Below are positions 3,798 to 38,423 of a stretch of 41,428 nucleotides of DNA, one piece after another. The stretch is from Candidatus Zambryskibacteria bacterium RIFCSPHIGHO2_01_FULL_43_25 (lineage in GTDB: Bacteria > Patescibacteriota > Minisyncoccia > Phycocordibacterales > Zambryskibacteraceae): assembly GCA_001823695.1 (NCBI GenBank), contig MHVD01000004.1:1-41428 (forward strand), read 5' to 3'. Position 1 is the stretch's first letter, and every line of letters starts with the position of its first letter. The notes beneath the pieces were generated by a model. The model was given only the letters and a program-made list of their open reading frames with translations, made no database searches and was not told the origin of the DNA. The translations under genes were made by a program, and so were the position numbers.

Positions 3798-3867
3798 CCC
3801 GTTAGAGATTAATTCTAATCTAGCTAAATAATAGAAGAAAAACTTCGTTAAATCAAGAAAAGAATAG

Positions 3868-8041: not shown

Positions 8042-8113
8042 GGCCACGTAGCCAAGTAGTAAGGCAGGAGTCTGCAAAACTCCTATACGCGGGTGCGATT
8101 CCCGCCGTGGCCT
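8042..8113 (+). tRNA. tRNA-Cys (anticodon GCA)
   Basis: Cloverleaf: acceptor GGCCACG/CGTGGCC, 3-bp D-stem, anticodon loop CTGCAAA, T-arm GCGGGTGCGATTCCCGC, discriminator T. CCA is not encoded. Confidence 0.85.
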
Positions 8114-8246
8114 CCCTAAAACATTTATGGAGTAAATGTTCGGGCGAACATTTGCGAAGCAAAGTGTTTTAGCCAGGCCTAGGAGCAAACAAGCTGCTTT
8201 GTTTGCATCGGGAATTGCAGATTTGTTAAATTTGCCGTTAGAAGCC

Positions 8247-8328
8247 GGGCCAGTGGCGGAATGGTATACGCGCAACACTTAAAATGTTGTCCGCTATGCG
8301 GATGAGGGTCCGACTCCCTCCTGGCCCA
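8247..8328 (+). tRNA. tRNA-Leu (anticodon TAA), class II with long variable arm
   Basis: Acceptor GGGCCAG/CTGGCCC, anticodon stem-loop CAACA-CTTAAAA-TGTTG, long variable arm, T-arm GAGGGTCCGACTCCCTC. Confidence 0.8.
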
Positions 8329-8358
8329 CTTAGTACAAGATTATAATTTTGGTCAACC

Positions 8359-8400
8359 AATAAACATACTAACAAACTTGAGTTTGTTAGTATGTTTATT
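8359..8400 (+). promoter_or_regulatory. 42-bp perfect palindrome (20+TG+20) overlapping the promoter of the ArsR-like gene; candidate operator or terminal inverted repeat
   Basis: AATAAACATACTAACAAACT-TG-AGTTTGTTAGTATGTTTATT; the arms are exact reverse complements. It ends 5-14 nt before the gene's ATG codons. Confidence 0.7.
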
Positions 8401-8414
8401 GTAGGATGTTAAAT

Positions 8415-8699
8415 ATGACAAAAGTTAAAACCCCAAAGCAAATGGAACGCCACCTTAAGGGTATAGCCAACCATTACAGAATTGAAATATTACTCATAAT
8501 CTCAAGAAAAAAATCTATGACTTTGGAGGAAATCGTTGATGAAATTAAAGCTAATGAAAAAACACTGGGCGCGCACACGAGAAGTCTCCACCATGCAGGG
8601 CTTATTAACAAAAAATACCAAGGAAGATTCGTAAATCACTCCCTCTCTCCATATGGCAAGAAATTTGTTAATTTCTTGAAATCATTTCAACATGGATAA
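8415..8699 (+). CDS. ArsR/SmtB-family winged-helix transcriptional regulator (small, orphan)
   Basis: ANHYRIEILLIIS...LEEIVDEI...HTRSLHHAGLI matches the ArsR HTH pattern (compare LADPTRLRILELL...SHHLKVLREAGLV). The start could also be the ATG at 8406. Confidence 0.75.
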   Translation: MTKVKTPKQMERHLKGIANHYRIEILLIISRKKSMTLEEIVDEIKANEKTLGAHTRSLHHAGLINKKYQGRFVNHSLSPYGKKFVNFLKSFQHG

Positions 8700-8738
8700 C
8701 AACATACTCACAAACTCAAGTTTGTTAGTGTGATGTAA
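8700..8738 (+). repeat. second, imperfect copy of the ArsR-flanking palindrome, in inverted orientation (centre CA)
   Basis: ACATACTCACAAACT-CA-AGTTTGTTAGTGTGATGT begins 1 nt after the stop codon. It approximates the reverse complement of the upstream copy with 3 mismatches. Confidence 0.65.
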
Positions 8739-8872
8739 TTATGTTGTAGTGGATCGTGTCTTGTCGTCACAAATAAATTTGCTGACGTAAATTTTTCGCG
8801 ACCCTGGCTCGTGGTTTTTGCCTTTACTTCGCAAAACAAAAACATTGCTGTGCCTCGGACAAAAGCACAAAA

Positions 8873-8903
8873 TCCTGCGCAAGCAGGATTATTGTGTCTT
8901 TTG
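8873..8903 (-). terminator. hairpin terminator (AATCCTGC-GCAA-GCAGGATT plus T-rich tail) downstream of tRNA-Lys; may also terminate the ArsR gene on the + strand
   Basis: Perfect 8-bp stem with a GCAA loop, followed by TTGTGTCTTTTGTCC. Confidence 0.5.
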
Positions 8904-8977
8904 TCCGCCCAGTAGGATTTGAACCTACGACCGTTCGCTTAAGAGGCGACTGCTCTACCGGCCTGAGCTATGGGCGG
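8904..8977 (-). tRNA. tRNA-Lys (anticodon CTT)
   Basis: The reverse complement folds: acceptor CCGCCCA/TGGGCGG, D-arm GCTC-AGGCCGGTA-GAGC, anticodon loop CTCTTAA, T-arm GTAGGTTCAAATCCTAC, discriminator A. There is one G.A mismatch at the base of the anticodon stem. Confidence 0.7.
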
Positions 8978-9048
8978 ATTTTTACGTTCCAAATATACCA
9001 AATTAGTAGCCACAAACAAAGCCAGAAAATACATCAACGATTTATCTA

Positions 9049-9077
9049 TTGACTATTTCTTATTGATGTGCTAGTAT
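9049..9077 (+). promoter_or_regulatory. sigma70-like promoter (TTGACT-17-TAGTAT) upstream of the Nudix gene
   Basis: -35 TTGACT at 9049-9054 and -10 TAGTAT at 9072-9077. Two small hairpins lie in the 5' UTR. Confidence 0.45.
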
Positions 9078-9141
9078 ATACAAGCTACCACTAATTGGCG
9101 GTAGTTCCCTACTGCGGGCAAAGCGGAGTTCTTTAAGAGAG

Positions 9142-9609
9142 GTGTATGTGTCTTCCTACTCGAAATACGCCGTCGGCGTGATGATTCTTTTGCCCGACAA
9201 CCGAATCGTGGTAATTGAAGAGCCAAGCAAACCGCCTCCGACGCTTCCCAAATTCCCCATCGGGCAGAGTACAAAAGAAGAAGAAAACCTTCTTCGGATG
9301 GGCTATCCCGAGGGAGAGGTGCTCCGAATCGTGGGCGTGAGGGAGGCCGAGGAAGAAACAGGAATCTCTATGAGAAAAGCCAAGTATCACGGCTTGGTTC
9401 ACAGAGAAACCAGGCGCCTTCCCCAACCACACGACTGGGTGCTGAAGGAATACCATCTTCCTTTCATACCCGCCGGCCCGACAAAGGGCCAGGACGGTCA
9501 AAGGGTTTCCTTTCTGACAGCGAGGGAAATCCTCTCCAACCCGCGTTTCCACAAGGATCATCTCCAAGCCGCAAGGAAACGGCTTGAAGAGATCGCCGGA
9601 TTGCGTTAG
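9142..9609 (+). CDS. Nudix hydrolase
   Basis: Nudix box G-x5-E-x7-REAEEETGI is present (GVREAEEETGI). 155 aa. Confidence 0.75.
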   Translation: MYVSSYSKYAVGVMILLPDNRIVVIEEPSKPPPTLPKFPIGQSTKEEENLLRMGYPEGEVLRIVGVREAEEETGISMRKAKYHGLVHRETRRLPQPHDWVLKEYHLPFIPAGPTKGQDGQRVSFLTAREILSNPRFHKDHLQAARKRLEEIAGLR

Positions 9610-9610
9610 G

Positions 9611-9644
9611 GAGCGCCCGCGAGAAGTTACGCGGGCGCTTTTTC
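9611..9644 (+). terminator. Rho-independent terminator after the Nudix gene
   Basis: GAGCGCCCGCG-agaagtta-CGCGGGCGC followed by TTTTTC. Confidence 0.8.
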
Positions 9645-9772
9645 ATTGAAAATAAATATTGTATTCTTTACTGGTAAACAAGCTGGGGTAACCCGAACAA
9701 CCCTGCAGTGACAGTCTTGAACGGGTAAATGAAATCGAATCCCAGGGTTAGTGAGGTTTTAAGAAACAAAAT

Positions 9773-9857
9773 GGGTAGGTGGCGGAATTGGTATACGCGC
9801 ATGGCTTAGAACCATGTCCCGCGAGGGTTGCGAGTTCAAGTCTCGCCCTACCCACCA
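9773..9857 (+). tRNA. tRNA-Leu (anticodon TAG), class II, CCA encoded
   Basis: Acceptor GGGTAGG/CCTACCC, anticodon stem-loop CATGG-CTTAGAA-CCATG, long variable arm, T-arm GCGAGTTCAAGTCTCGC, ACCA 3' end. Confidence 0.85.
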
Positions 9858-9985
9858 AGACAGAACTTAGCGGTTGAGAACCAACCAAGGCGTAAGCGGC
9901 GCGAAGCGCCGCTCATACTGTTTCGCCTGATTTTCCAAAATTGTTAATAGAAACACAAATATAAGTTAGGATATTAAAACCGCTT

Positions 9986-10019
9986 GGTATAATAACTTAC
10001 GATCGTAAGTTATTATACC
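9986..10019 (+). repeat. 34-bp perfect palindrome GGTATAATAACTTACGA|TCGTAAGTTATTATACC (PalA family) upstream of the SPFH gene promoter
   Basis: The arms are exact reverse complements. It shares the termini GGTATWATA...TATWATACC with the palindrome at 21512. Confidence 0.7.
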
Positions 10020-10081
10020 ATTTTAAAATAGCGAAAAGTTTCAGAGAGGTTTTTAGGATTTTTATGAGTTGAGATTTTTTG

Positions 10082-10110
10082 TTGACTTTTTTTACTGTCT
10101 GTGATATAAG
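10082..10110 (+). promoter_or_regulatory. sigma70-like promoter (TTGACT-17-TATAAG)
   Basis: -35 at 10082-10087 and -10 at 10105-10110. It lies about 50 nt upstream of the AAGGAAGG RBS and the ATG at 10161. Confidence 0.45.
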
Positions 10111-10160
10111 AAACAACGGAAAAACGTACGTTGCGAATCACTACAACAAGGAAGGTTGGA

Positions 10161-11588
10161 ATGATTACGTGGCAGAGATTCAAGCTGTACCTGTGGGAAT
10201 CATGGGAATCGGTGAAAGGACGATTCGAAAAACGAATCAAAGCCTTAACCGAAGCGTTGAAGAAGTTGTGGAAGAGGCGACGGGAGAAATCGGCTGATGA
10301 GCCGACAATTGGTAAGTCAGACGACGTGGTGGAAGCAGACTGGGAGTTTGTAGAGGAGTCTTCTGACAAAGGCCCAGCCAGAACCATTCCGACTCATGTC
10401 CGAGTTGGGCTGGTCATGCTGGCTGTTTTTCTCCTGTCGGCTCTCGGCCTCAGTCTCTTCGAGAACACTGTCCTCGGTCAGACCTGGAACTGGGGAGCAT
10501 TCGTTTTCTACCTCACAATCCTGTGGCTCTTCTTGAGCCTTAGGATAGTGAGGGAGAACCAGACTGGAGCTATCCTCTTTTTCCGGAAACCAATCACCAA
10601 GGCACAATCCGGTATTCATTTCGTCCCCTTTTTACTTTATGCTCTGGAAACCATTCAGAAAACAGTTATCCAGTTCGAAATTCCGGCAGAACCGGAGCTG
10701 GTATGGAAGGGAGACGATGACAAACTCCCGAAAGGGATGGCTCCGCCGGTTCGCATCACCCATGCGCAGTTGGAATCGGCAATGTTCTACAGGGATGACC
10801 TCGAGGACGAGCCTACCAAGCATTTCAGCGAGTTTAGTCCGGAAGAGCAAGCTGTGCTTAGGTCAGACACGCTTCACCGGAAACGGCTCGTCTCTGAGGC
10901 AAGCGGAATCGTAAGACTCCTAGTCAGAGATTACTGCAAGTTCCTCGGAACAATCGAGTCTATGGAAGGAAAGGAGGGAGCAAAGAAACAGATCGCTGAC
11001 ACAGTCGTGTCCACGTGGCAAGATGTGATCGCCAAACTCACCCCTGCTGAAGCCAACATGCACAAGAGACGAATTAGCAAGCTTGTTCTGAAAAGAGTTC
11101 GACAGAAGTGCGGCGAAGAGGCATATGAAGGCGAGAGCGAGAGTGAACGCAAGGAACGTGAGTGGGGTATCCACGTTGAAGACACCGAGCTCAAGCCCTT
11201 CGACTGGCGAACAACTGTCAACAAGGCAATCGCGGCTGCAAGCGCAGCGGGAATGAACAAGGAAACGACGATCACCGATGCCGAAGCGGAAGGTGAAGCG
11301 ACGGTCTTGATTGGCCGTGGCGTGGCGGAATCCGCATTCCTCCTTTCTCAAGCCAAAGCCAAGGGTGTGAAGGTGGTTGCCGATCAGATTCATGACAACC
11401 CCGCTGGCGAAATCGCCGCGCGTCTCCTGGCAATGGAAGAGATAGCGAAGAAGTCGCCGCTCACGATTGTTCCAACGGAAGGTATCTTCGGACCAGCGTT
11501 GGGAATTGCGGAAGCGATCAAAAAGGGAGGCCCTGGAAGTTCAAGAGACACCCCCGAGTCGTCTCCAGCATCTCCTCCAACCCCATAA
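10161..11588 (+). CDS. SPFH/band-7 (flotillin-like) domain membrane protein
   Basis: Two N-terminal TM helices. The SPFH-like core is VRENQTGAILFFRKPI...SGIHFVPFLLYALETIQKTVIQFEI. The C-terminal region has flotillin-type ITDAEAEGEATVLIGRGVAE...LTIVPTE. The start was chosen at the ATG with the AAGGAAGG RBS; the ORF track starts at 10131. Confidence 0.5.
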   Translation: MITWQRFKLYLWESWESVKGRFEKRIKALTEALKKLWKRRREKSADEPTIGKSDDVVEADWEFVEESSDKGPARTIPTHVRVGLVMLAVFLLSALGLSLFENTVLGQTWNWGAFVFYLTILWLFLSLRIVRENQTGAILFFRKPITKAQSGIHFVPFLLYALETIQKTVIQFEIPAEPELVWKGDDDKLPKGMAPPVRITHAQLESAMFYRDDLEDEPTKHFSEFSPEEQAVLRSDTLHRKRLVSEASGIVRLLVRDYCKFLGTIESMEGKEGAKKQIADTVVSTWQDVIAKLTPAEANMHKRRISKLVLKRVRQKCGEEAYEGESESERKEREWGIHVEDTELKPFDWRTTVNKAIAAASAAGMNKETTITDAEAEGEATVLIGRGVAESAFLLSQAKAKGVKVVADQIHDNPAGEIAARLLAMEEIAKKSPLTIVPTEGIFGPALGIAEAIKKGGPGSSRDTPESSPASPPTP

Positions 11589-11611
11589 ATCCCACCGAGG
11601 TTGTAGTTGAT

Positions 11612-11650
11612 GAGGCCGTCTTGCTCCCCGCGAGACGGCCTCTTTCATTT
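11612..11650 (+). terminator. Rho-independent terminator after the SPFH gene
   Basis: GAGGCCGTCT-tgctccccgcg-AGACGGCCTC followed by TTTCATTT. Confidence 0.7.
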
Positions 11651-11677
11651 GACAAAACAACTTTGATAGTATATAAT
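11649..11677 (+). promoter_or_regulatory. perfect-consensus sigma70 promoter (TTGACA-17-TATAAT)
   Basis: TTGACA at 11649-11654, exact 17-bp spacer, TATAAT at 11672-11677. A GGAGGA RBS lies at 11722 before the ATG at 11731. Confidence 0.65.
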
Positions 11678-11730
11678 GCACACGGAACCTGTACGCAAAG
11701 ACAACCTGTTTCCTATTTCTGGAGGATTCG

Positions 11731-12888
11731 ATGCGTGGCGCTCTGACCCCACTCGTGGTGTTGGTAGTAATCGGCCTTATCTTCTTTATCATCAGGTACA
11801 TTGCCAAAAACCCTGGTTCCGTAAAGAACCTACCTGGTCAACTTCCTAACTTGATCAAGAAGGTCCTTTCTAGTGGGGACTTTTGGATACCATTGATCTC
11901 AGTGCCCATAATTCAGTGGCTTCTGTGGTCGTTCTCAAACGACCGGTGGGAGGCATTCTGGGATTCTGGCAGATTTTTCCCGGTCATCATTGCGGCTTTT
12001 CTCATCGCTTGGATATGGAAGAGAAAGCCGTGGTGGAGCGCAACGGGAGTGGGTCTCATGACAGCCGGCAGTCTGGCTGTTATGTTTTTCCCTTCGAAGG
12101 AATCGACTGTCAAGGACAACCTGAAGATCGTCGCGTTGTCTGCGCTCGAGACGGTGCATTACGGCCCCGGATCTGGAGTGACAGGAGAAGTAAGCATCCT
12201 GTCCGGCCACGTCTTCCGTGCGCTTTGCACTGATACGGCGATGGTGGAGAGAATCCTTCGGGAATTCAGCGGCGACACAACGATGGCAAACATCGCCGCC
12301 GCGGAGTCCAATTGCCGGCATCAGGTCGGTGACTCAGTTGTAACAAACGAAAACGCCAATGGGACAAAAGACCGAGGGCTCTGGCAGATCAACGACGCCC
12401 GCAGGTTCTTGGCGGATTCTCTTGGGGTAAATTATATGACTCTTGACGGAAACTTCGCAGTGGCGAAGGAACTCCTCAAGAGGAACCCCGACTACTCCGA
12501 CTGGGATTCCTCTCGGAGATGCTGGGAGATGAGGATCTGCGGCCGCCAACCAACGACTGTCGGTAGCGTTCCTCAGACACCCATCTTTCAGCTCACGCTG
12601 GGAGAGGGGGAGAAGGAATTGCAGGTTCCTGCCGACCAGCCAAGCCAGAGGATCCTCATGATCCGCGGAACGCGGACCAACTTCTGGCCGCTGATCTGGA
12701 AAGGGCCATACCTCGTGATCGACGAGAGCGGGAAGCAATACCGTATAGAGACAGATTCAATCTGTCCAGCGGTAGACACTCCATCGAACATGGTGGCTTT
12801 CCAAGCCATTGATTCCGCCTTTGTCATGTTGGTGGAGAAAGTGTCGTACGACGACACCAGATTCATCGACCGAGGGTGCAAGAAGTAG
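11731..12888 (+). CDS. 4-TM membrane protein with a VirB1-like specialised lytic transglycosylase (lysozyme-like, GH23) domain
   Basis: The N-terminal ~120 aa contain four hydrophobic helices. The soluble domain carries AAESNCRHQVGDSVVTNENANGTKDRGLWQIND. This matches the ES...N.NGS.D.GLMQIN signature of VirB1/IpgF/EtgA-type lytic transglycosylases, which are tied to secretion systems and pili. The ~190-aa C-terminal region is unknown. Confidence 0.55.
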   Translation: MRGALTPLVVLVVIGLIFFIIRYIAKNPGSVKNLPGQLPNLIKKVLSSGDFWIPLISVPIIQWLLWSFSNDRWEAFWDSGRFFPVIIAAFLIAWIWKRKPWWSATGVGLMTAGSLAVMFFPSKESTVKDNLKIVALSALETVHYGPGSGVTGEVSILSGHVFRALCTDTAMVERILREFSGDTTMANIAAAESNCRHQVGDSVVTNENANGTKDRGLWQINDARRFLADSLGVNYMTLDGNFAVAKELLKRNPDYSDWDSSRRCWEMRICGRQPTTVGSVPQTPIFQLTLGEGEKELQVPADQPSQRILMIRGTRTNFWPLIWKGPYLVIDESGKQYRIETDSICPAVDTPSNMVAFQAIDSAFVMLVEKVSYDDTRFIDRGCKK

Positions 12889-12897
12889 GTTGCGGGG

Positions 12898-12990
12898 GCG
12901 GAGGTATCTTCGGATACCTTCGCCCCTTTTTCATTTGCAAAGCAAACCGCCGCGCTCCAAGAGGGCGCGGCGACTTGCTGATTTTTATTT
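12898..12990. terminator. convergent terminator pair between the + LT-domain gene and the minus-strand small-protein operon
   Basis: Hairpin GGCGGAGGTATC-ttcg-GATACCTTCGCC followed by CCTTTTT serves the + strand. Hairpin CGCCGCGC-tccaagagg-GCGCGGCG is followed, in minus orientation, by a T-rich tract. Confidence 0.55.
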
Positions 12991-12995
12991 TCTAG

Positions 12996-13274
12996 TTAGT
13001 TTCCAAATAGGAATGGCGCCGTTGTCGCAGGATCAATGCCAAATGTCTGCAGGATTATTCTTATAACACCGAATACAGCAAACATTATGAACATACCGAT
13101 TATTCCCCAAAGCATATTGCGCTGGCCGGTACTTCTTGCTTCTTCGTTGTCAGTATTTCTGACGAACTGGAATATCCCCCAGAAGAAAAGCAGTAGAGAT
13201 ACGGTGAAAAGGAGAACTATTATCGGATTGAGAATGAACTCATTAATCTTGTGTAAGAGCGGAGCGACACTCAT
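12996..13274 (-). CDS. small 2-TM protein, FFWG-type paralog 4 of 4 (lacks a signal peptide); VirB2/TrbC-pilin-like topology
   Basis: 92 aa: LLLFFWGIFQFVRNTDNEEARSTGQRNMLWGIIGMFIMFAVFGV. Two hydrophobic helices are separated by a short charged loop. Paralogous to the ORFs at 13294, 13837 and 14180. Confidence 0.5.
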   Translation of the reverse strand: MSVAPLLHKINEFILNPIIVLLFTVSLLLFFWGIFQFVRNTDNEEARSTGQRNMLWGIIGMFIMFAVFGVIRIILQTFGIDPATTAPFLFGN

Positions 13275-13293
13275 TGTCGGTTAAGAACTGGCT

Positions 13294-13653
13294 TTATGGC
13301 AAACCTGGAACACCCGGAACATTGGACAGATCGTCCCCGATATTAACGTCTAGAGCTTCTCCTATAAATTCAACCAAGCCCCAGACAGCTACCATAACGA
13401 ACAGGGCGACAATGCCCCAAATCATGATGTTCTTTCCCTCTTTTTTCTTCTCTTCATCACCAGCGGCCAGAATGTACTTCGCCAATCCCCAGAAGAAGAA
13501 TAGAAGGGCCAGAGCGACAACGATAGGAAGCAACACCTCGATAATTCTGCCTATTGACTGGAAGAAGTCCTCAACGTTTGTAAGTTGGGGGCCGCCAGCC
13601 AAAGCCATGAATGGCAATGCGTAAAGAGCTATAGTGCTTAGAACTTTCTTCAT
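13294..13653 (-). CDS. small secreted 2-TM protein, FFWG-type paralog 3; VirB2/TrbC-pilin-like topology
   Basis: 119 aa with signal peptide MKKVLSTIALYALPFMALAGG, then LLFFFWGLAKYILAAGDEEKKKEGKNIMIWGIVALFVMVAVWGLV. Confidence 0.55.
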   Translation of the reverse strand: MKKVLSTIALYALPFMALAGGPQLTNVEDFFQSIGRIIEVLLPIVVALALLFFFWGLAKYILAAGDEEKKKEGKNIMIWGIVALFVMVAVWGLVEFIGEALDVNIGDDLSNVPGVPGLP

Positions 13654-13836
13654 TTTTATTTATTAAATAATAAACGATTTATGACTACAAGCCTTGTTTA
13701 AAGCCCAACAAGAAATAGTTTCTTGTGTAAGGCCGCAATTAGGCCAGCCACAAACCTCTTGACCTTTCATTCCTAAAAGGACTTAAACACTATTTTACAA
13801 TGATTGACCAATTAAAACAATAAACGATGGGGATAA

Positions 13837-14172
13837 TCAGGGCGCTACTATGTTAAAGGGATTCAAGTGCGATGGACTGAATATATCCTGCTGAATCAAC
13901 TTCACGATCCCCCATATCGCGACCATCACAAAAAGGGAAACTATACCCCAGAGCATTATGCGTTTTCCTTCTTCTATGGCTTTCTCGTCTCCTGCGCTTC
14001 TTATCATTTTCGTTACGCCCCAGAAGAAAAATAACAAAGCTAAAGCGACAGCAATAGGTATCAAAAGAGCCACCAGAGAGCCGATAGCTAAAAGAAGCTC
14101 CTGGAAACTTGCTACCTGCGCTTTCGCCAGGAGCGGCGCAAAAAACAACATTAGTGTCAGTATATTTGCCAT
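13837..14172 (-). CDS. small secreted 2-TM protein, FFWG-type paralog 2
   Basis: Start taken at MANILTLMLFFAPLLAKAQ (signal peptide). The ORF track extends to 14235, which would overlap the previous gene. Core: LLFFFWGVTKMIRSAGDEKAIEEGKRIMLWGIVSLFVMVAIWGIV. Confidence 0.5.
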   Translation of the reverse strand: MANILTLMLFFAPLLAKAQVASFQELLLAIGSLVALLIPIAVALALLFFFWGVTKMIRSAGDEKAIEEGKRIMLWGIVSLFVMVAIWGIVKLIQQDIFSPSHLNPFNIVAP

Positions 14173-14179
14173 ATTCTTA

Positions 14180-14653
14180 TCAATTGCTACTGCCCCTGGT
14201 TGGCAAAAAAGGAAGTTGGATCGGTCCGCCGCCAATGAAGTCGGAGTAGAGGAGATTTATGATGCCCCAGATAGATACCATTATAAACAAGGCGATAATA
14301 CCCCAAAAAATCAGTCTCTTGCCGTCGGCAACTTTCTTCTCATCTCCAGCCGCGAGTATGAATTTCGACAGCCCCCAGAAAAAGACAAGCATCGTCAACG
14401 CAACCATAATTGGGAAAGCTGTATTTATGAAATTTAGAATAATGCAAATAAATTCAGAAAAGTTCTGCGGAGCTTGAGACGGGGTATTTGAACTAGGAGT
14501 CGGACAGGAAGCAGCAAAAGTTACAAGGGGAATAAAGAAAAAAGAAAAAAGAACTAGCCCGCCCGAACGACTGACATCGTTCAGTCGGGCGGAGAATAAG
14601 GAATAAAGAATAAGGAGAGCCAATAATTTATTTTTCGGGAAAAATTTAAGCAT
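14180..14653 (-). CDS. small secreted or lipoprotein-like 2-TM protein, FFWG-type paralog 1, with extended N-terminus
   Basis: 157 aa. N-terminal hydrophobic region includes LVTFAASC (lipobox-like). Core: MLVFFWGLSKFILAAGDEKKVADGKRLIFWGIIALFIMVSIWGII. Confidence 0.5.
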   Translation of the reverse strand: MLKFFPKNKLLALLILYSLFSARLNDVSRSGGLVLFSFFFIPLVTFAASCPTPSSNTPSQAPQNFSEFICIILNFINTAFPIMVALTMLVFFWGLSKFILAAGDEKKVADGKRLIFWGIIALFIMVSIWGIINLLYSDFIGGGPIQLPFLPTRGSSN

Positions 14654-14654
14654 C

Positions 14655-15038
14655 TTACGGGGTTGTTGTTAACTGGTTTATTGTCGCCTCAATAGCCTTG
14701 GCTATTACCCAAGCGCCGAGGAGTACTGCTGTGCCTATAGCAACATAAAGAAAGTTTCTCTTGGCAACTTCAAGCTTGGCTTCATTGCCCTGAGCAGTAA
14801 CAAACTTAAAACCGGCAAATATTATCATTATTGTGACCACGACACCGCCAACAGGAAGTATAACGTCATTTATTACGACCCTGATGAAGTCGTAAAGGTT
14901 ATCTGTCCCCCCCTTAAGAGGATTCTGCAAACCGCCGGGGTTACCGATTGAGGCGGAAACAATTAATGGGAGAGTAAAAATACCAAGAACTGTAATTTGT
15001 GCTACCGCGAAAGATAAGGTTCTAAAAAATGATCTCAT
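14655..15038 (-). CDS. small secreted 2-TM protein, divergent type B; VirB2/TrbC-like topology
   Basis: 127 aa with an N-terminal hydrophobic signal, then VVVTIMIIFAGFKFVTAQGNEAKLEVAKRNFLYVAIGTAVLLGAWVIAKAI (helix, charged loop, helix). Confidence 0.5.
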   Translation of the reverse strand: MRSFFRTLSFAVAQITVLGIFTLPLIVSASIGNPGGLQNPLKGGTDNLYDFIRVVINDVILPVGGVVVTIMIIFAGFKFVTAQGNEAKLEVAKRNFLYVAIGTAVLLGAWVIAKAIEATINQLTTTP

Positions 15039-15044
15039 AATATT

Positions 15045-15503
15045 TTAAGGTTGCGTATTTATAAGAATCTGGAAAAACGTTGAGCCGGGATCAAGCAACG
15101 CCTTGCCTATAGTATAAACAATGACCCAGGCCGCCAAGACAAAAATAAAACCAATCAATGTCTTCTTGAAAATTCCGTGCGCTTTTTCAATCTTGCTTTG
15201 ACTGCCCTCTGCCGTAATATATATCGCGCCCGCCCAGATAAATGACAGCGCCGCCAAAGGAATAGCTATAATAATCATAAATTTCAATATCTTTTCCGCA
15301 AGCTCAACAAGGTCGTCAAAACCGCATGGGTCTTGTATAACCCCAGTTTTCAAATCGGGTTTGTCGTCACAGACATCCATAAAAGTGCTCGTGGGATTTT
15401 GGGCATAAGCCAGATTTGGGACGTTTAGAAACACGAAAAGGACAAGCGTTAAAAGCGCAAAAATAAGACCACTTGATACACTTTTTTGCCTGAAAGTCTT
15501 CAT
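15045..15503 (-). CDS. small secreted 2-TM protein, divergent type A; VirB2/TrbC-like topology
   Basis: 152 aa with a signal peptide ending AYA, a Cys pair (CDDK...DPC) in the mature N-terminus, then IIIAIPLAALSFIWAGAIYITAEGSQSKIEKAHGIFKKTLIGFIFVLAAWVIV. The ATG overlaps the upstream gene's stop (TAATG), indicating translational coupling. Confidence 0.5.
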   Translation of the reverse strand: MKTFRQKSVSSGLIFALLTLVLFVFLNVPNLAYAQNPTSTFMDVCDDKPDLKTGVIQDPCGFDDLVELAEKILKFMIIIAIPLAALSFIWAGAIYITAEGSQSKIEKAHGIFKKTLIGFIFVLAAWVIVYTIGKALLDPGSTFFQILINTQP

Positions 15504-16792
15504 TATTTCCCCTCTAGTAAAAGATTAATGCGTCCATGCGTATCGGCTATTGCCTGCTCCTGTCTTACCCGTCCGCCGGTTATTGATTCAATCATCTCCC
15601 TAAAAAGCACTTCTGTCTCTTCCGGATCCGGATCGTGCCACCCCCTAGCCCAAAGAGCGCTTTTGTAAAAGACCGACAAAAATTGATCCGACGGCAGTTC
15701 CGCTAGAAGATCTCTTCTCGGAGGAGGAAGTTTCAGGTTTTCAACAAAGGCCGCGACACTTTCACGGGTAGTGAGAGCTCTGGCTATTTGGTAAGCTCCG
15801 GCTATATTCTTTGAATTTTTGATAATTGCTAACCCATAAAGCTGGCCAAAGGTTGTATTGCGTCCGGAATTTCTGGATTGAGGCATTATGGAAACATCAA
15901 AATTAAGATTCGGATTTTTGCGTCGTACATAATCAAGCTCCGAGGCAAAACCAAAATAGACCGCCAAATCACCGGCAACAAAAGAAGTTTGAGCATCAGG
16001 CAGGGATCTATTCCAGGAATAAAAGGCTTTAGTCGGGTTTGAAAATTCGGTGTAGAAAGTCAGGGCAGAATTGGCCGGAGAGATGGGTTCACCGCGTCTG
16101 TCGGAGAGGGTGCTTACAAATTTGTTATATTGCCATTCAACTATCGGGTTGCCCGCCTGGAAAATAAGCGTGGTAAGAATCTCCTTGGCATTTTGGATAT
16201 TGGAAAACTCGCCCATAGCCACTGTGCTCCTCTCCAGATTGAGAGCTCCGGCGCGAATGGTTAGTTTTTTGGTTAGGTCAAAAAATTCATCCCAGTACAG
16301 AGGCGGAGTTGATATGCCCGCGTTTGTAAAAATATCCCTGTTCCAGTACATAACCAGAGGGTCAATCGTCAAGGGCAGCGCCACAATCCCATCGGACATG
16401 AGAAACATCTCGGCTTCTTCTACAAAAGAGCTCTTGAAATCTCTCTCGGAAATAGTCTGGTAGGGAATGGGGAAAATTTTGTTGCGGTACTTTATGATCA
16501 AATCCTGGGAAATGACAATCAGGTCCGGACCACCGCCTGAAGCCAGAGCTTCAAGAAGATCTTCATCGAAACTCTCTGCCGGTTTTTCAACATAGCTGAC
16601 CTTGAACGTGTCATCCTTGCTTATGGGCAATTTGGAGAACGACTGCGAGAAGACACCACGAGACATTGTGCCCCAGATTACGACGTTGGAAGTCGTTTGG
16701 CCTCCGCCGCCCTTGCTTAAAGCAAAAAAAGCAACGCCTATCGCTATAAATACCCCGAACACAACCAGAAGACCGATTTGGAATTTACTCAT
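15503..16792 (-). CDS. membrane-anchored extracellular solute-binding-protein-like protein (SBP_bac_1 / sugar ABC substrate-binding fold)
   Basis: 429 aa with an N-terminal TM anchor. Periplasmic-binding-protein motifs DPLVMYWNRDIFTNAGISTPPLYWDEF and AVYFGFASE. No adjacent permease or ATPase genes. Confidence 0.6.
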   Translation of the reverse strand: MSKFQIGLLVVFGVFIAIGVAFFALSKGGGGQTTSNVVIWGTMSRGVFSQSFSKLPISKDDTFKVSYVEKPAESFDEDLLEALASGGGPDLIVISQDLIIKYRNKIFPIPYQTISERDFKSSFVEEAEMFLMSDGIVALPLTIDPLVMYWNRDIFTNAGISTPPLYWDEFFDLTKKLTIRAGALNLERSTVAMGEFSNIQNAKEILTTLIFQAGNPIVEWQYNKFVSTLSDRRGEPISPANSALTFYTEFSNPTKAFYSWNRSLPDAQTSFVAGDLAVYFGFASELDYVRRKNPNLNFDVSIMPQSRNSGRNTTFGQLYGLAIIKNSKNIAGAYQIARALTTRESVAAFVENLKLPPPRRDLLAELPSDQFLSVFYKSALWARGWHDPDPEETEVLFREMIESITGGRVRQEQAIADTHGRINLLLEGK

Positions 16793-17190
16793 CCCGTTAG
16801 AAATCAGTTAGTTGGGTTTGTAATTTGACCATAATTATTTGACTGATTTTATATTAATACACCTGTAAGTGATGTAACTACGGAAATGCCCATACTTTAA
16901 CATTTTTATCAAGCTTCCTTTTCGAACTTTTCTATTTTTCTATAAGTTAGAGCTCTAATCATACAGCATTTCCTATTTCTTACGGGACTCATCCCGTTAG
17001 AAATCACTTAGTTTGTCTTGTAATGCGACCATTATTTATTTACTATTTTGTATATTAATATACCCGCAAGAAATTCTGATTACGGAAATGCCTATATTTT
17101 TATAATCCTGTCTAGCTTCTTTTTCAATTAACTCCATAAAACTATTTTACAGTTGCTCTTTCTTCCGTAGCATTTCCTATTTCTAACGGG
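16787..17190. repeat. tandem direct repeat, two diverged ~200-bp units (16787-16986 and 16987-17190); each unit ends in a copy of the SBP start region (CGGG-ATGAGT in minus orientation)
   Basis: The units align at about 75% identity. Each begins ACTCATCCCGTTAGAAATCA and ends CATTTCCTATTTCT(T/A)ACGGG. A 12-bp inverted repeat CCCGTTAGAAAT / ATTTCTAACGGG brackets each ATGAGT. Confidence 0.75.
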
Positions 17191-17192
17191 AC

Positions 17193-17720
17193 TCATTTCT
17201 TAAGCATCATTATACCAAAGTGATGTTCGCCTGCCGATATATCCTTTTCAACCGAAAATCCCTTGTTTGAGAAAAGCGAGACTGCTGAATCTCTGGTAAA
17301 TACGGCCGACTGTTCCGGACCAAGACCTTCGAAAGAATCCGTCCAGTCAATAATCAAAGCCCGCCCGCCGGACTTGAGTATCCGCGCCGCTTCTCCAGCA
17401 CAGGCCTCTTTATTGGAAATTTGAAACAGCACATTGGACATAAAAACCCAGTCAGCGCTCGCATCCTTCAGTCTGGTGCCTCCTATTTGTTCTATATCGC
17501 CCCAGATTATCTCAACATTGGAGAGGTTGCGGCGGCGCGCCTCGTTTTTTATACGAGCCAAAAGATCCTTCTGAATGTCCACGGCATAAACTCGGCCTGA
17601 CTCGCCTACTTTAAGCGCCGCCGCCAGGGTGTAGTGGCCGGAGCCGGAGCCAAAGTCAACCACTACTTGCCCCAAAAGCAAGTTAAGCTGGTCTATATTT
17701 TTTTGAGGGTCGGAGAACAT
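17193..17720 (-). CDS. class I SAM-dependent methyltransferase
   Basis: Motif I VVDFGSGSGHYT and Rossmann-fold MTase spacing. 175 aa. Confidence 0.7.
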   Translation of the reverse strand: MFSDPQKNIDQLNLLLGQVVVDFGSGSGHYTLAAALKVGESGRVYAVDIQKDLLARIKNEARRRNLSNVEIIWGDIEQIGGTRLKDASADWVFMSNVLFQISNKEACAGEAARILKSGGRALIIDWTDSFEGLGPEQSAVFTRDSAVSLFSNKGFSVEKDISAGEHHFGIMMLKK

Positions 17721-17896
17721 AAGATAGACAAGAAACTAAAAACTTAATACAAAAAACTCAAAACCTGTTATTTAATTATAACTCACATATCAAGAATTGG
17801 TTATGGATAATTACACTACCCAATAGCGCTAGGTTCGCAACAAAATGTTACAGGTTGCAAGTTTTAAGTTTTAAGTTTTCCGTTGCAAGTTATACG

Positions 17897-20371
17897 CTAC
17901 AAGCATATAAGGCTTGCTAATTTGTCCCCTTCCCGCAATTTCATTATTCTAACGCCTTGAGTGGAGCGCGACAGTTCCGGAATTTCATTTATTCCCACTC
18001 TAATGACTTGCCCTTTTTGGGAAATTGCCACCAATTCTTCCTCTTCTTCCGTTACAACTGCCGATGATATCAGATTGCCCGTCTTTGCCGTTATCTTCCC
18101 TGTTTTTATTCCAGAACCGCCGCGCTTTTGAACCTTGTATTCTCCAATATCAGTTTTCTTACCGTAGCCATTCTGACTAATTACCAGCAACTTCGGGCTC
18201 GGAGCGTCTTTGCGGACAACTTGAGCCGCGATTATGCTGTCACTCTTGGATAGCTTCATCACCCTGACTCCTGCCGCGTTTCTACCCATTTCCCTGACAT
18301 CGGACTCCTTAAATCTGATTGCTTGGCCTTTTGTGGAAGCCAAAGACACGGTATCGCCCTTGCTTGCGAGCGAAGCAGACACCAACAAGTCGTCAGATGA
18401 GAGTTTAATGGCAATTATTCCGCTTGAGCGCACATCCCGAAGCGTCTCTGCCGCCACTCTTTTCCCAACTCCTTGTTTTGTAACCATGAACACGGAGAGG
18501 CCCTCCTTGGCTTTCGCTTCTTTTGGCACAGGCAAAATAGAAGTTATTTTTTCGTCGTCTCCCAGAGATATGAAATTCATTATTGATTTGCCGCGAGTCG
18601 CCCTTTTGCCTTCCGGAATATCGTACATCTTTATCTGATAGACTTTGCCCCGGTCTGTGAAAAAGAGAAGGTCGCTGTGAGTGCTGGTGGTCAAAAATTG
18701 CGTTACAAAGTCTTCCTCTTTGGTATTGAGGTCAACAACACCGACACCGCCGCGACGCTGCTTTTTGTATTCATCCGGATTCGTCCTCTTGATGTATCCG
18801 CCGGCGGTGAGTACTAGCGCGTTTTCTTCGTCTGCAATCAGATCTTCCGGCGAGAATATTTTTGCTCCGTGTTTGACCACTTTCGTCCTCCTTTCATCGC
18901 CATACTTCTCCTTGAGTTCCTTAAGCTCGTCTTTTATTATGCCAAGGATTTTTTTCGGATTTTTCAATATATCTTCAAGCAGAGAAATAAGTTCTTGTAT
19001 TGACTTGAGTTCGTCTTCAATTTTCTTGCGCTCAAGACCGGCAAGTCTCTGCAGTTTCATTTCCAAAATGGCAACTGACTGTTTGTCGGAGAACTTGAAC
19101 TCCTTCATCAGGCCCTTATGCGCATCTTCAACTGTCTTTGATGCTTTTATGAGCTTGATAATCGCATCTATGTGGTCCAGCGCTTTTTTGAGACCGAACA
19201 GAATGTGCTCGCGGTCTTTTGCCTTATTCAGGTCAAATTCCGTCTTTCGGCGGATAACTTCGGCTCGATGGACCGTAAACTCTTCCAGAATGTCTCGGAG
19301 AGAGAGTGTTTGGGGTATACCTTCTACAAGCGCTACAAGATTGAAATGGAATGTATCCTCAAGCGCCGTGTGCTTATAAAGAGCGTTAAGAACTTTTTGC
19401 GGCTGGCTGCCGCCCTTGAGCTCTATGACAATTCTTATATCTTTGGTGGATTCGTCGCGCAAATCTCTTATGCCGTCAATCTTCTTTTCGTGCACTAGGT
19501 CGGCAATTTTTTGTATCAAATCGGATTTATTGACTCTATAAGGAATGGCGGAAATTATTATTTGGTATTGGCCGAGTTTAGTTTCGGTTATTTCGGCAAT
19601 ACCACGCGTTACTACACCGCCGCGGCCAGTGGCATAAGCATGATGAATATCTTTCTCATTGAAAATAAGTCCGCCGGTCGGAAAGTCGGGACCCTTTATG
19701 AATTGCAACAAATCTTCCGTCGTGGCATCGGTATTGTCCAGAAGGTGGCAGACCGCGTCGGCGACTTCGCCAAGATTGTGCGGAGGAATATTGGTCGCCA
19801 TTCCGACCGCAATGCCCAGGGTACCGTTCAGAAGTAGGTTTGGAACTGCAGCCGGCAGAACTTCGGGTTCCTTTTTGGTGCCATCGTAATTGGGGCGGAA
19901 ATTGACTGTATTCTTGTCAATGTCCCGCAGAAGCTCGCTTGAAAGCCGAGACATTTTCGCTTCGGTGTATCTGTAAGCGGCGGCGGCATCGCCGTCTATT
20001 GAACCGAAGTTGCCCTGCCCGAGTACTAGCGGGTAACGAAAAGAAAAATCTTGGGCCATTTTAACCATCGCATCATATACGGACGCGTCGCCATGGGGAT
20101 GATAGCTTCCCAATACCGCACCGACGACTGTCGCCGACTTCCTGAATTTGGCGCTAGCAGTCAAGCCCATCTCATTCATTGCATATAAAATTCTCCTGTG
20201 AACGGGCTTCAAGCCATCGCGAACGTCAGGAAGAGCGCGGGCAGTAATAACCGACATCGCGTAGTCTAGATACGACTCCTTCATTTCGCTCGTTATGCTA
20301 CGTGAAACCACTTGAGAGATTGGCGCTCCCGCTTCTTCACTTTCCTTTTCTTCCTTTTTCTTTTCAGCCAT
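17897..20371 (-). CDS. gyrA: DNA gyrase subunit A
   Basis: 824 aa with the active-site region [29 protein letters not shown] and C-terminal beta-pinwheel repeats. Confidence 0.93.
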
Positions 20372-31254: not shown

Positions 31255-31403
31255 TCCCGTAAGAAATAGGAAGTGCTAATGAATGAAGACAAAAATGGAA
31301 AAATATCTAGAATATTACAAAAATAATCTTACGCAGGACTCGCTGACCGCGGCCTGCCAGCCCGAACGAATGAATTCTTTCATTCTGGTGGGTTTCTAAC
31401 GGG

Positions 31404-33025: not shown

Positions 33026-33047
33026 TAACCCCTATTATACCACAATA

Positions 33048-33719: not shown

Positions 33720-33723
33720 TTCG

Positions 33724-34332: not shown

Positions 34333-34340
34333 AATACAAA

Positions 34341-34380
34341 AACCCGCCCTTCCGCCAGCTGGCGAAGGAACGGGGTCTTT
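34341..34380. terminator. intrinsic terminator, CCGCC-hairpin family copy 3 (CCCG-CCTTCCGCC-AGCT-GGCGAAGG-AACGGGG)
   Basis: Lies downstream of the giant surface-protein gene on the minus strand, with a T-run on the minus strand. Confidence 0.6.
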
Positions 34381-34388
34381 GTCATACT

Positions 34389-38339: not shown

Positions 38340-38423
38340 GAGATTTTCATTTAATTTGTAAAAAATTTTTCCACACTTTAATTGCGTTGAAAAACACGGA
38401 CGAACAAAAGACATCTGGTCTTA

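Follow-up and report, generated by a model that had tools for sequence, protein, structure and literature searches.

We found that the chromosome of Ca. Zambryskibacteria (Paceibacteria), one of the ultra-small Patescibacteria, carries six VirB2-like pilin paralogs in an operon led by a gene for a solute-binding-like (SBP-like) protein. The locus is probably the Paceibacteria form of the VirB2-like pilin array, a chromosomal satellite of a monoderm-type (MPF-FATA-like) T4SS encoded elsewhere in the genome. Given that no T4SS core gene lies in the window (the whole stretch analysed, 41,428 nucleotides), the link between the array and a T4SS is drawn from family membership and from other genomes of the group. 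The initial annotation could assign the combination to no described system and proposed a surface filament or adhesion apparatus, a T4SS satellite locus or a new envelope module; the second option fits best, and the array at its core is of a type already known in Patescibacteria. Tandem arrays of 2-11 VirB2-like genes occur in 383 Patescibacteria assemblies, with an average identity of ~25% among paralogs, and many of them lie far from virB4 (PMC12102498). The six-gene array of Southlakia epibionticum is essential (PMC10633639, PMC12857230), and in cultured Paceibacteria T4SS pilins rank with the most strongly expressed of the secreted proteins (PMC10936435). In PMC12102498 and PMC10633639 we found no mention of an SBP, and the searchable literature yielded no description of the SBP-array combination, of its fixed gene order, or of transglycosylase and SPFH genes convergent on such an array.

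The locus occupies positions 10131-16792 and consists of an SPFH gene and a PF18896 transglycosylase gene on the plus strand and the operon of the SBP-like protein and six paralogs on the minus strand; all nine genes that had been claimed were present where they had been placed (Table 1). They had been viewed as a single 7-kb unit, whereas three transcription units seem to be present, one each for the SPFH gene, the transglycosylase gene and the SBP-array operon: since a terminator-like hairpin and a promoter match separate the two plus-strand genes and a second hairpin precedes the array, the SPFH and transglycosylase genes fall outside the operon. The second hairpin may act as terminator for the convergent transcripts. 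The tandem cassettes 5' of the SBP gene may carry the operon promoter; in the loci of relatives the methyltransferase and SBP genes abut instead. A domain scan of the large ORFs of the window detected no VirB4, VirD4, VirB6 or ABC permease/ATPase domain in any of them, in agreement with the initial annotation; GyrA was recognised via its orthologs, outside this direct scan.

Table 1. Features of the locus and their positions in the window
Feature	Position	Strand	Evidence and remarks
SPFH/Band-7 membrane protein	10131..11588	+	Band_7 27.7 bits vs GA 23.6
Terminator-like hairpin	11612-11642		between SPFH and transglycosylase genes
Sigma-70-like promoter match	11649..11677	+	TTGACA-17-TATAAT, 12/12; 5' of transglycosylase gene, 3' of hairpin 11612-11642
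Membrane-anchored lysozyme-like/lytic transglycosylase, 385 aa	11731..12888	+	PF18896 SLT_3; convergent with array
G+C-rich hairpin, 15 bp	12894..12927	.	between transglycosylase gene and array
Pilin-like gene 6, 92 aa	12996..13274	-	PF18895 24.7 bits, just under GA
Pilin-like gene 5, 119 aa	13294..13653	-	PF18895 51.9 bits
Pilin-like gene 4	13837..14172	-	PF18895 40.4 bits; likely ATG start
Pilin-like gene 3, 157 aa (longest ORF)	14180..14653	-	PF18895 33.9 bits
Pilin-like gene 2, 127 aa	14655..15038	-	PF18895 35 bits
Pilin-like gene 1, 152 aa	15045..15503	-	PF18895 43.1 bits
Orphan solute-binding-like protein, 429 aa, N-terminal membrane anchor	15503..16792	-	SBP_bac_1 72 bits
Two tandem cassettes, ~200 nt each, inverted repeats as borders	16787..17196	-	5' of SBP gene

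All six small proteins matched the T4SS_pilin family PF18895, five of them above its GA of 26.6 bits, and none matched a holin or immunity family. The protein of gene 2 also came close to TrbC (PF04956; 27.2 bits vs GA 27.9), for which many orthologs have precomputed matches, and that of gene 5 scored 35.5 bits against NF045849, the NCBIfam model of the Mbov_0395 pilin-like conjugal transfer protein (cut-off 40). The proposed VirB2/TrbC relationship stands at the level of family membership. Likeness to the solved VirB2 and TraA pilins could not be confirmed, our searches having found neither a significant sequence match nor a discriminating fold similarity to any solved T4SS pilin; "pilin" is used here as the label of a family assigned from sequence matches. 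The two hydrophobic helices attributed to every small protein were present in all six, as a hairpin with a short A-x-G-(D/N)-E loop, and the attributed signal peptide in five, gene 6 being the exception. The paralogs are ~18-24% identical to one another and differ in layout. The gene 1 protein has a Cys-pair segment (C45 and C60, both conserved) between its signal peptide and its helices, and the gene 2 class carries an NP motif; the AF2 model of the gene 2 protein (pLDDT 85.5) consists of the signal helix and two further helices (48-81 and 86-124) that form a hairpin. Gene 4 belongs to the variable middle class and is separated from gene 5 by 183 nt; its longest ORF opens at TTG 14235 and its start is most likely ATG 14172. 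Gene 6, the conserved end of the array, encodes a short protein of two hydrophobic helices only.

The SBP gene and the array are tightly joined. In GGGAAATAATGAAG the stop codon of the SBP gene and the ATG of gene 1 share TAATG, the overlap that had been noted initially. Among related loci having DNA downstream of the SBP gene, this gene was directly 5' of the array on the same strand in 141 of 142 (72/72 from genomes, 69/70 from metagenomes). The distance between the SBP stop codon and the first-pilin start, the latter taken from its longest ORF, did not exceed 12 nt in 57 of 72 loci, with 4-nt or 1-nt overlaps being common. Precomputed Pfam calls of relatives independently gave SBP_bac_1 followed by 4-7 T4SS_pilin genes. 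The operon architecture and the paralog order are conserved across hundreds of related species, so that recurrence of the gene order in relatives, proposed as a check on the locus, proved strong. However, every locus fetched was collinear over ~30 kb (FtsA ... S1, MBL, GyrA, methyltransferase, SBP, array, transglycosylase, SPFH ... RbfA, IF2), and no lineage with broken housekeeping synteny was found among them. The adjacency of SBP gene and array may therefore be inherited gene order, and synteny alone is weak evidence for their functional coupling.

This bears on an explanation that we regard as unlikely but as deserving the most attention among the alternatives, namely that the SBP-like protein is the receptor of an ordinary ABC importer for carbohydrates, with the permease and ATPase genes at another site in the genome, that it shares a promoter with the array by genome compactness and that the array serves the T4SS alone. 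The protein, 100% identical to OHA89135.1 of Ca. Zambryskibacteria, is a clear member of SBP_bac_1 and also of SBP_bac_8 (61 bits), and its AF2 model (pLDDT 92.4) has a confident MalE-like fold (TM-score 0.6-0.72, 17-19% identity to solved structures). The two lobes are intact and many aromatic residues are invariant, and the invariant set includes Trp, Tyr and Asn/Asp as in sugar-binding sites. Judged from sequence and model, the protein looks functional for binding, as a genuine sugar-binding protein would, which we counted against our preferred explanation. Tight packing is moreover the norm here, since in most loci the methyltransferase gene, too, adjoins or overlaps the SBP gene and the whole 30 kb is collinear, and in one locus (L135) EF-Ts comes after the SBP gene and there is no array. 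On the other hand, the initial description of an orphan SBP held: no ABC ATPase of transporter size was detected in 2.2 Mb from 160 related loci, no ABC ATPase or permease lay in the window or within 10 kb of the SBP gene in these loci, and five annotated loci gave no permease or ATPase Pfam match within 8-10 kb of it. The near-constant company of the array, with stop/start overlaps, also argues against an importer receptor, as does the membrane anchor. The N-terminus has no lipobox Cys; individual residues along one face of its anchor helix are conserved (F4, Q5, F12, F15, I16, G19, V20 and F23, at helical spacing), which a simple tether would not need, and conservation of the TM helix (0.67) is on a par with that of the globular part (0.61). 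The SBP is under purifying selection, with a median identity of 47.5%, similar to the 50% of the neighbouring methyltransferase and the 56% of the MBL-fold enzyme.

The conserved anchor would also suit a T4SS-independent membrane complex, in which a channel or platform of VirB2-like 2-TM subunits is fed or gated by the SBP and works as an uptake or sensing device. We consider this rather improbable. No T4SS core gene accompanies the operon, the paralogs are constant in order and number, as one would expect of a hetero-oligomer with a set composition, and reviews call the role of the Patescibacteria T4SS unknown and speculate on uptake from the host (PMC12857230, PMC11665869). Yet array size ranges from 2 to 8 genes across related loci, PF18895 proteins elsewhere in Patescibacteria sit within T4SS clusters, and VirB4 is carried by most genomes of the group (22/25 Zambryskibacteria assemblies). 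An SBP-gated membrane complex of VirB2-like subunits also has, to our knowledge, no precedent, which weighs against it.

The paralogs might also be interchangeable variants for surface or antigenic variation or for adaptation to host strains, as suggested for Patescibacteria arrays (PMC12102498), a reading to which we give little credence. Their low identity fits the reported average, and the middle types 3, 4 and 5 differ in number and order between species, gene 3 being mostly third in related arrays. The outer positions, in contrast, are stable: in 69 of 71 loci the best match to gene 1 opened the array, in 68 of 71 that to gene 2 came second, and gene 6 was last in 26/30 six-gene and 19/21 seven-gene arrays, giving patterns such as 1-2-3-4-5-6 and 1-2-3-4-5-5-6, i.e. 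type 1, type 2, a variable middle and a short leaderless last gene. Types 1, 2 and 6 keep their positions even in species whose GyrA is ~70% identical to that of the window, and each has class features (the Cys pair, the NP motif and the missing leader, respectively). Fixed positions and class features together point to specialised subunits of old standing and not to variants with a rapid turnover.

The claim of a 4-TM protein with an ES-signature transglycosylase domain was confirmed, as a lysozyme-like, SLT-type domain (PF18896 SLT_3, residues 183-258, 32.8 bits vs GA 27) on a four-segment membrane anchor (5-21, 45-61, 79-95 and 104-120), followed by an uncharacterised C-terminal region of ~125 aa. 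At least 80% of 33 orthologs retain the ES motif (residues 192-193); the orthologs are otherwise very divergent, and one that was tested had no Pfam match. The SPFH protein, whose start codon is uncertain, has hydrophobic segments at 94-110 and 124-140. Of 58 loci, about 41 had a transglycosylase-related gene after the array and 47 an SPFH-like gene at the place of the SPFH gene (from cluster c4 or from the divergent cluster c0, the two being linked by hhalign at 95.8%), both usually convergent with the array. A lysozyme-like domain adjoining several small 2-TM proteins could recall a phage-derived lysis or bacteriocin cassette with holin-like or immunity proteins, but this is effectively refuted, as none of the nine proteins matched PHROGs, the six small ones all match T4SS_pilin and no holin or immunity family, the locus is stable on the chromosome beside gyrA in hundreds of species, and the enzyme is encoded on the other strand from the small genes, each having signals of its own.

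If the locus is a T4SS satellite, the small proteins would be inserted by Sec, processed and held as a membrane pool, from which the T4SS would build a surface conduit or a short filament where the cell touches its host. Paralog 1, paralog 2 and the last, leaderless paralog may each have a specialised task that the others could not take over, for instance as tip, adaptor or base, and the middle paralogs would be the bulk subunits. The lysozyme-like enzyme might open the wall locally and the SPFH protein might scaffold the membrane patch. The SBP-like protein, whose role we infer, could be anchored by its conserved TM helix as an extracytoplasmic partner of the complex, acting as ligand or host-glycan receptor or as assembly factor, not as an ABC importer receptor. 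The NF045849 relatives are Mycoplasma ICE proteins without a known pilus, which argues against a pilus.

Compared with the VirB1/EtgA-type transglycosylases, the enzyme shares the lysozyme-like domain, the conserved ES catalytic motif, the NGTKDRGLWQIN segment and secretion-gene neighbours, and differs in its PF18896 domain, four-segment anchor and C-terminal region and in its separate, convergent transcription. MalE and UgpB-like SBP_bac_1 proteins of ABC importers share the family HMM match and the two-lobe fold with the SBP-like protein, which has an uncleaved-looking conserved TM anchor instead of a lipobox and is followed by pilin-like genes, with no permease or ATPase nearby in the 160 loci. 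SBPs serving T4SS-related functions other than bulk nutrient uptake include the pheromone-binding PrgZ and TraC of enterococcal conjugative plasmids, which belong to the OppA family, bind peptides and work through the Opp permease of the host, and ChvE, which acts with VirA in sugar sensing in Agrobacterium; PrgZ is encoded with transfer genes and ChvE apart from the vir genes, and neither system is known to be coupled to pilin genes. The Mycoplasma ICE protein Mbov_0395/MMCAP2_0565 (NF045849), matched by five of the six small proteins (E 1e-4 to 6e-9, all under the curated 40-bit cut-off), is likewise a 2-TM T4SS-associated protein of a monoderm, encoded by a single gene in a mobile element as opposed to a chromosomal array. 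Gram-negative VirB2/TrbC/TraA pilins (PF04956) have the same small size, leader, two hydrophobic helices and short polar loop, whereas here the host is a monoderm, six differentiated paralogs replace one major pilin, and no VirB3, VirB4 or VirB5 is adjacent. The closest counterparts, the VirB2-like arrays of Patescibacteria (Quinonero-Coronel et al. 2025, PMC12102498), including that of Southlakia epibionticum ML1 (Wang et al. 2023, PMC10633639), are also tandem PF18895/VirB2-like genes within the 2-11 range, with low paralog identity, on a monoderm chromosome and with a lysozyme-like enzyme nearby. Unlike these, the array described here lies beside gyrA and not inside a T4SS cluster, has at its head an SBP-like gene coupled to it translationally, and keeps a fixed paralog order across species.

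The products of the window match Candidatus Zambryskibacteria entries OHA89128-OHA89135, placing the host within Patescibacteria (CPR), class Paceibacteria; the solute-binding-like (SBP-like) protein, the transglycosylase and the product of array gene 1 are 100% identical to OHA89135, OHA89128 and OHA89134, respectively, of Candidatus Zambryskibacteria bacterium RIFCSPHIGHO2_01_F.... Every gene described for this block in the initial annotation was recovered in the ORF list and by Pfam scans, and the flanks encode housekeeping functions (ClpB, IF2, RbfA, tRNAs, GyrA, S1, Pth, signal peptidase, FtsA and FtsZ), with GyrA identified via its orthologs. The overlap of the SBP stop codon with the ATG of gene 1 in TAATG, likewise proposed initially, is found in the sequence, and the remaining gaps within the operon are 6, 1, 7, 183 and 19 nt when gene 4 is started at the ATG at 14172. 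The block had been presented as a single 7-kb module. Because terminator-like and promoter-like signals sit between the genes, it looks instead like three transcription units, in which the SPFH and transglycosylase genes converge on the SBP-array operon; the hairpin and promoter calls are pattern matches, not functional evidence. An Rfam scan of 9500-18000 yielded one tRNA that passed and two sub-threshold matches that were disregarded.

Features of the SBP-array locus and of the convergent genes
Feature	Coordinates	Strand or location	Evidence
SPFH/Band-7 protein	10131-11588	+	Band_7, 27.7 bits vs GA 23.6
Terminator-like hairpin, 13 bp	11612-11642	between SPFH and transglycosylase genes	consensus scan
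Perfect TTGACA-17-TATAAT promoter match	11649-11677	between SPFH and transglycosylase genes	consensus scan
Lysozyme-like transglycosylase, 385 aa	11731-12888	+	PF18896 (SLT_3, 'lysozyme like domain'), 32.8 bits vs GA 27, residues 183-258
G+C-rich hairpin, 15 bp	12894-12927	between transglycosylase gene and array end	consensus scan
Six small T4SS_pilin genes	after SBP gene, down to 12996	-	PF18895
SBP-like protein, 429 aa	15503-16792	-	SBP_bac_1, 72.2 bits

Several features of the surrounding DNA were also recorded. The 183-nt gap between genes 4 and 5 (13654-13836) is non-coding, the other operon gaps measuring 1-19 nt, and a consensus scan found no convincing promoter or terminator pattern in it. 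Between the RbfA and SPFH genes, the stretch 8042-9857 contains four tRNA genes (Cys, Leu, Lys, Leu), among which lie a regulator of the ArsR type (8406-8699) and a weak NUDIX-like ORF (9142-9609). A second envelope cluster on the minus strand (32045-38414) comprises a sortase (33048-33719) and two secreted CAP-domain proteins (32045-33025 and 33724-34332). It also includes a protein of 1341 aa (34389-38414) that carries DUF11 and DUF642 repeats and could be an adhesin or a surface protein anchored by the sortase.

The SBP-like protein belongs to SBP_bac_1, as seen from both its HMM match and its two-lobe periplasmic-binding fold. The AF2 model, based on an 80-sequence alignment, shows two confident lobes (pLDDT 92.4) resembling maltose- and sugar-binding proteins (TM-score 0.6-0.72, identity 17-19%, E ~1e-21), and the best sequence match in the PDB was a mannobiose-type binding protein (E 2e-14). 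A structural match to C. difficile 'PilW' (7t31) was discounted as most probably due to an MBP tag, given that the other top matches are MBP fusion constructs. No lipobox was found, and any Cys within the first 40 residues was present in 4 of 80 homologs only. The N-terminal hydrophobic helix shows a conservation of 0.67 compared with 0.61 for the globular part, with conserved residues F4, Q5, F12, F15, I16, G19, V20 and F23 at helical spacing, suggesting that the anchor may make a specific intramembrane contact. Median ortholog identity was 47.5% for the SBP-like protein, 50% for the methyltransferase, 56% for the MBL-fold enzyme and 70.5% for GyrA. Searching for a permease or ATPase partner, we found none in Pfam scans of the large ORFs of the window and none within 8-10 kb in five Pfam-annotated related loci, while a Walker-A plus LSGGQ scan of all ORFs in 160 loci (2.2 Mb) returned only four proteins of 790-915 aa. 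Since these far exceed the size of a transporter ATPase, the SBP-like protein is an orphan within the loci scanned; ABC partners elsewhere in the genome are possible.

To follow the gene through related genomes, we used its family, which matches >3,300 sequences clustered at 90% and 1,171 clusters at 50% identity with E <=1e-30, with relatives in at least 578 GTDB species genomes. The sample consisted of 80 genome loci and 80 metagenome loci, the latter picked around a divergent family member, annotated by BLASTP of the window proteins and by an HMM derived from the six paralogs of the window. A same-strand PF18895-like array, mostly of 6 or 7 genes, directly followed the SBP gene in 72/72 genome loci and 69/70 metagenome loci with downstream DNA (141/142 in total), indicating that the order of SBP and small genes singled out in the initial annotation indeed recurs among relatives. 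In 57 of the 72 genome loci, the first small gene, taken as its longest ORF, starts <=12 nt from the SBP stop, 4-nt or 1-nt overlaps being frequent, and precomputed Pfam annotation of five independent contigs showed SBP_bac_1 and then 4-7 T4SS_pilin genes. The sole exception among the 142, locus L135 (3720-6224), carries EF-Ts in place of the array after SBP, with GyrA and the methyltransferase upstream, which could be explained by array loss, relocation or mis-assembly.

The conserved order extends well beyond the operon. Every locus obtained was collinear in the order FtsA, YbeY, His-tRNA-synthetase-like, signal peptidase, Pth, S1, MBL, small ORF, GyrA, (methyltransferase), SBP, array, transglycosylase, SPFH ... 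RbfA, IF2, and in most loci the methyltransferase and SBP genes directly adjoin as well. Given that the whole region is collinear in all loci, adjacency of SBP and array alone is not proof of joint function. A lineage with broken housekeeping synteny was sought via divergent SBP homologs, combining a representative search, an alignment of 31-38% identical members and a metagenome scan; all 80 new loci were gyrA-linked and collinear, so functional coupling is inseparable from inherited order in this sample, and low-scoring pil2 homologs on long contigs again showed unbroken synteny. The strongest alternative to a joint function is that the SBP-like protein is the receptor of an ordinary importer whose partners are encoded elsewhere, a role compatible with its sugar-binding type of fold. 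We regard this as possible but unlikely: coupling of SBP and array is favoured by their almost invariable co-occurrence, the overlapping stop and start codons, the conserved anchor and the lack of an ABC partner in the loci scanned.

The methyltransferase and SBP genes of relatives abut; in the window, the 400 nt from the methyltransferase stop to the SBP start (16787-17196) consist of two tandem ~200-nt cassettes that are 71-96% identical. Each begins with ATGAGT-CCCGT(T/A)AGAAATAGGAAATGC right behind a stop codon and ends with ATTTCTAACGGG-ATG at a start codon. A related cassette of ~150 nt with identical ends lies at 31250-31410 between thioredoxin-reductase-like and formyltransferase genes, and the motif TCTAACGGG followed by ATG also precedes the peptidase gene at 3797 (3798-3809). 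Because the two genes abut in relatives, the cassettes look like small inverted-repeat-bounded elements inserted exactly at gene junctions. The Rfam scan gave no match to the cassettes at 16787-17196, and when one cassette was folded its ends paired with an energy that was not unusual (z = -1.76).

Pfam scanning assigned the small proteins to the T4SS pilin family suggested in the initial annotation, five of the six lying above the PF18895 GA of 26.6 (33.9-51.9 bits) and the sixth reaching 24.7 bits; gene 2 fell just short of the TrbC/VirB2 cut-off (27.2 vs GA 27.9 bits). Alignment of the paralogs revealed a common layout of two helices, joined by a short A-x-G-(D/N)-E loop and preceded by a hydrophobic leader, and together with hydropathy this confirmed the predicted topology of a signal peptide and two transmembrane helices joined by a polar loop for genes 1-5 but not for gene 6, which is leaderless. 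The AF2 model of gene 2 is a hairpin of helices 48-81 and 86-124. Comparison of the small proteins with solved VirB2/TraA pilins was uninformative, giving no discriminating match, and an NCBIfam search returned only sub-threshold matches, to 'pilin-like' proteins of Mycoplasma ICEs, for which, to our knowledge, no pilus is known. The VirB4 association of the PF18895 family was not observed within the window: as first noted from the sequence, its scanned large ORFs hold no Pfam-detectable VirB4, VirB6, VirD4 or ABC domain, and VirB4, VirB6 and VirD4 were not found in the flanks of related loci either. Given the lack of VirB4 in the window, the uninformative fold comparison and the sub-threshold Mycoplasma relatives, the products should be termed VirB2-like membrane proteins rather than demonstrated pilins. 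Pilus polymerisation is not reported for any Patescibacteria PF18895 protein in PMC12857230 or PMC10633639. That the small proteins form a complex independent of any T4SS would agree with these local searches; VirB4 is present in 22 of 25 Zambryskibacteria assemblies (Table S1 of PMC12102498), and we consider T4SS independence improbable.

The paralogs are ancient and follow a set order. Gene 1 had its best match at the first array position in 69/71 loci and gene 2 at the second in 68/71, gene 6 had its best match at the last position in 26/30 six-gene and 19/21 seven-gene arrays, and genes 3-5 form a middle class whose copy number varies among species. Each of the outer types has features of its own: orthologs of type 1 keep a Cys pair (C45 and C60), not seen in the other paralogs, within an extra segment after the leader (15045-15503) that may form a disulfide-stabilised exposed loop; those of type 2 retain an NP motif; and type 6 (12996-13274 in the window), which ends the array in most species, is a ~91-aa protein that lacks a signal peptide and has two hydrophobic helices. 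As positional order and class-specific features are both kept, the paralogs fit better as specialised subunits of one structure than as interchangeable variants. Pure surface variation, to which the low paralog identity and the variable middle class could be ascribed, thus receives little credence from us, since a fixed order of differentiated paralogs argues against this published idea and points to a hetero-oligomeric structure.

The first 120 residues of the transglycosylase contain four hydrophobic segments, and the positive-inside rule predicts that its enzyme domain lies outside the cell. Its catalytic motif is similar to that of c-type lysozyme (NGSKDYGLFQIN), and the ES motif (E192-S193) is kept in >=80% of 33 orthologs. 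The SPFH protein has hydrophobic segments at 94-110 and 124-140, consistent with an N-terminal anchor. Gene clustering, HMM and profile-profile comparison placed a transglycosylase-like gene convergent after the array in ~41/58 loci, and an SPFH-like gene was next after the transglycosylase position in 47/58, belonging either to cluster c4 or to the divergent cluster c0 (hhalign probability 95.8%). Both families diverge fast, the SPFH protein sharing ~24.5% identity with its orthologs, and Pfam failed to match one ortholog of the transglycosylase and one SPFH-like relative of the c0 type. This pair, the fastest-diverging of the block among relatives, also has a raised G+C content (0.52-0.55 at 11001-13000, covering the 3' part of SPFH and the transglycosylase, vs ~0.43 in the array and SBP gene and 0.40-0.49 elsewhere). 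The transglycosylase gene looks like a transcription unit of its own, and the general collinearity of the region weakens a possible link of the enzyme to a secretion or pilus system. A phage-type lysis cassette, which a wall-degrading enzyme beside small membrane proteins could bring to mind, was rejected after a PHROGs search for holin and endolysin relatives gave zero matches; holin-type families, which the initial annotation had named as a contrary outcome, were not matched in it either.

On balance, we lean towards reading the locus as a satellite of a chromosomal monoderm-type T4SS. The small proteins would be Sec-inserted membrane subunits from which the T4SS builds a short filament or a conduit at the cell surface. 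In this structure the middle types would supply the bulk, and types 1, 2 and 6 would be specialised for its ends or as adaptors. Space in the wall would be cleared by the lysozyme-like enzyme, the SPFH protein would organise the membrane patch, and the SBP-like protein would be a partner outside the cytoplasm that either binds a host-derived ligand as a receptor or helps in assembly. The data establish family membership, operon layout, gene order, conservation and the orphan state of the SBP, from which assembly and the part played by the SBP are inferred. The key link between SBP and array is uncertain because it rests on gene order in an all-collinear clade. In a bolder version, which we hold to be quite unlikely, the SBP-like protein would be the substrate-capture front end of an import apparatus of VirB2-like subunits, with the T4SS ATPase optional, binding a host glycan or wall fragment at contact and passing it to a conduit of ordered paralogs. 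If true, this would be the first SBP-dependent T4SS-type uptake system and would provide a mechanism by which genome-reduced Paceibacteria draw building blocks from their hosts.

Arrays of this kind have been described. Using PF18895 and PF04956 on 3,035 Patescibacteria genomes, Quinonero-Coronel et al. (2025) catalogued 441 VirB2 arrays, each of 2-11 genes, in 383 assemblies; mean paralog identity was ~25%, and a role in adaptation to different hosts was suggested (PMC12102498). Our six consecutive genes, with paralog identities of 18-24%, fall under the definition used there (>=2 VirB2-like genes, in tandem or with one gene between, and low paralog identity). The accessible part of their Table S3 includes arrays far from virB4; in that part, PF18895 entries occur only near virB4, and distant arrays are listed solely via CONJScan profiles such as T_virB2, often incompletely, for which reason gyrase-linked arrays may be under-counted in the published 441. 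In Southlakia, the essential T4SS cluster includes predicted pilin subunits (Wang et al. 2023; PMC10633639); a 2025 review counts six sequence-divergent VirB2-like pilins there and speculates on a host-uptake conduit (PMC12857230), and in cultured Paceibacteria T4SS pilins rank with the most strongly expressed secreted proteins (PMC10936435). What the T4SS and its unusual pilin arrays do in Patescibacteria is an unsettled question: a 2024 perspective considers the T4SS role 'completely unknown' (PMC11665869), and reviews speculate on uptake from the host (PMC11665869, PMC12857230). We found no mention of a solute-binding protein alongside the arrays in these papers or in a wider literature search, which does not prove its absence from the literature. 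An SBP gene directly before the array offers a specific handle on this question through its ligand, its contact with the small proteins and its tracking with VirB4; should the coupling prove to be no more than inherited order, the locus would be an unremarkable case of an established class. Together, the family and topology put forward in the initial annotation stand and its unassignable new system does not, since the locus is a Patescibacteria VirB2-like array of the type already known, to which are added here a conserved SBP-like leader gene, a fixed order of differentiated paralogs and a convergent transglycosylase/SPFH pair.
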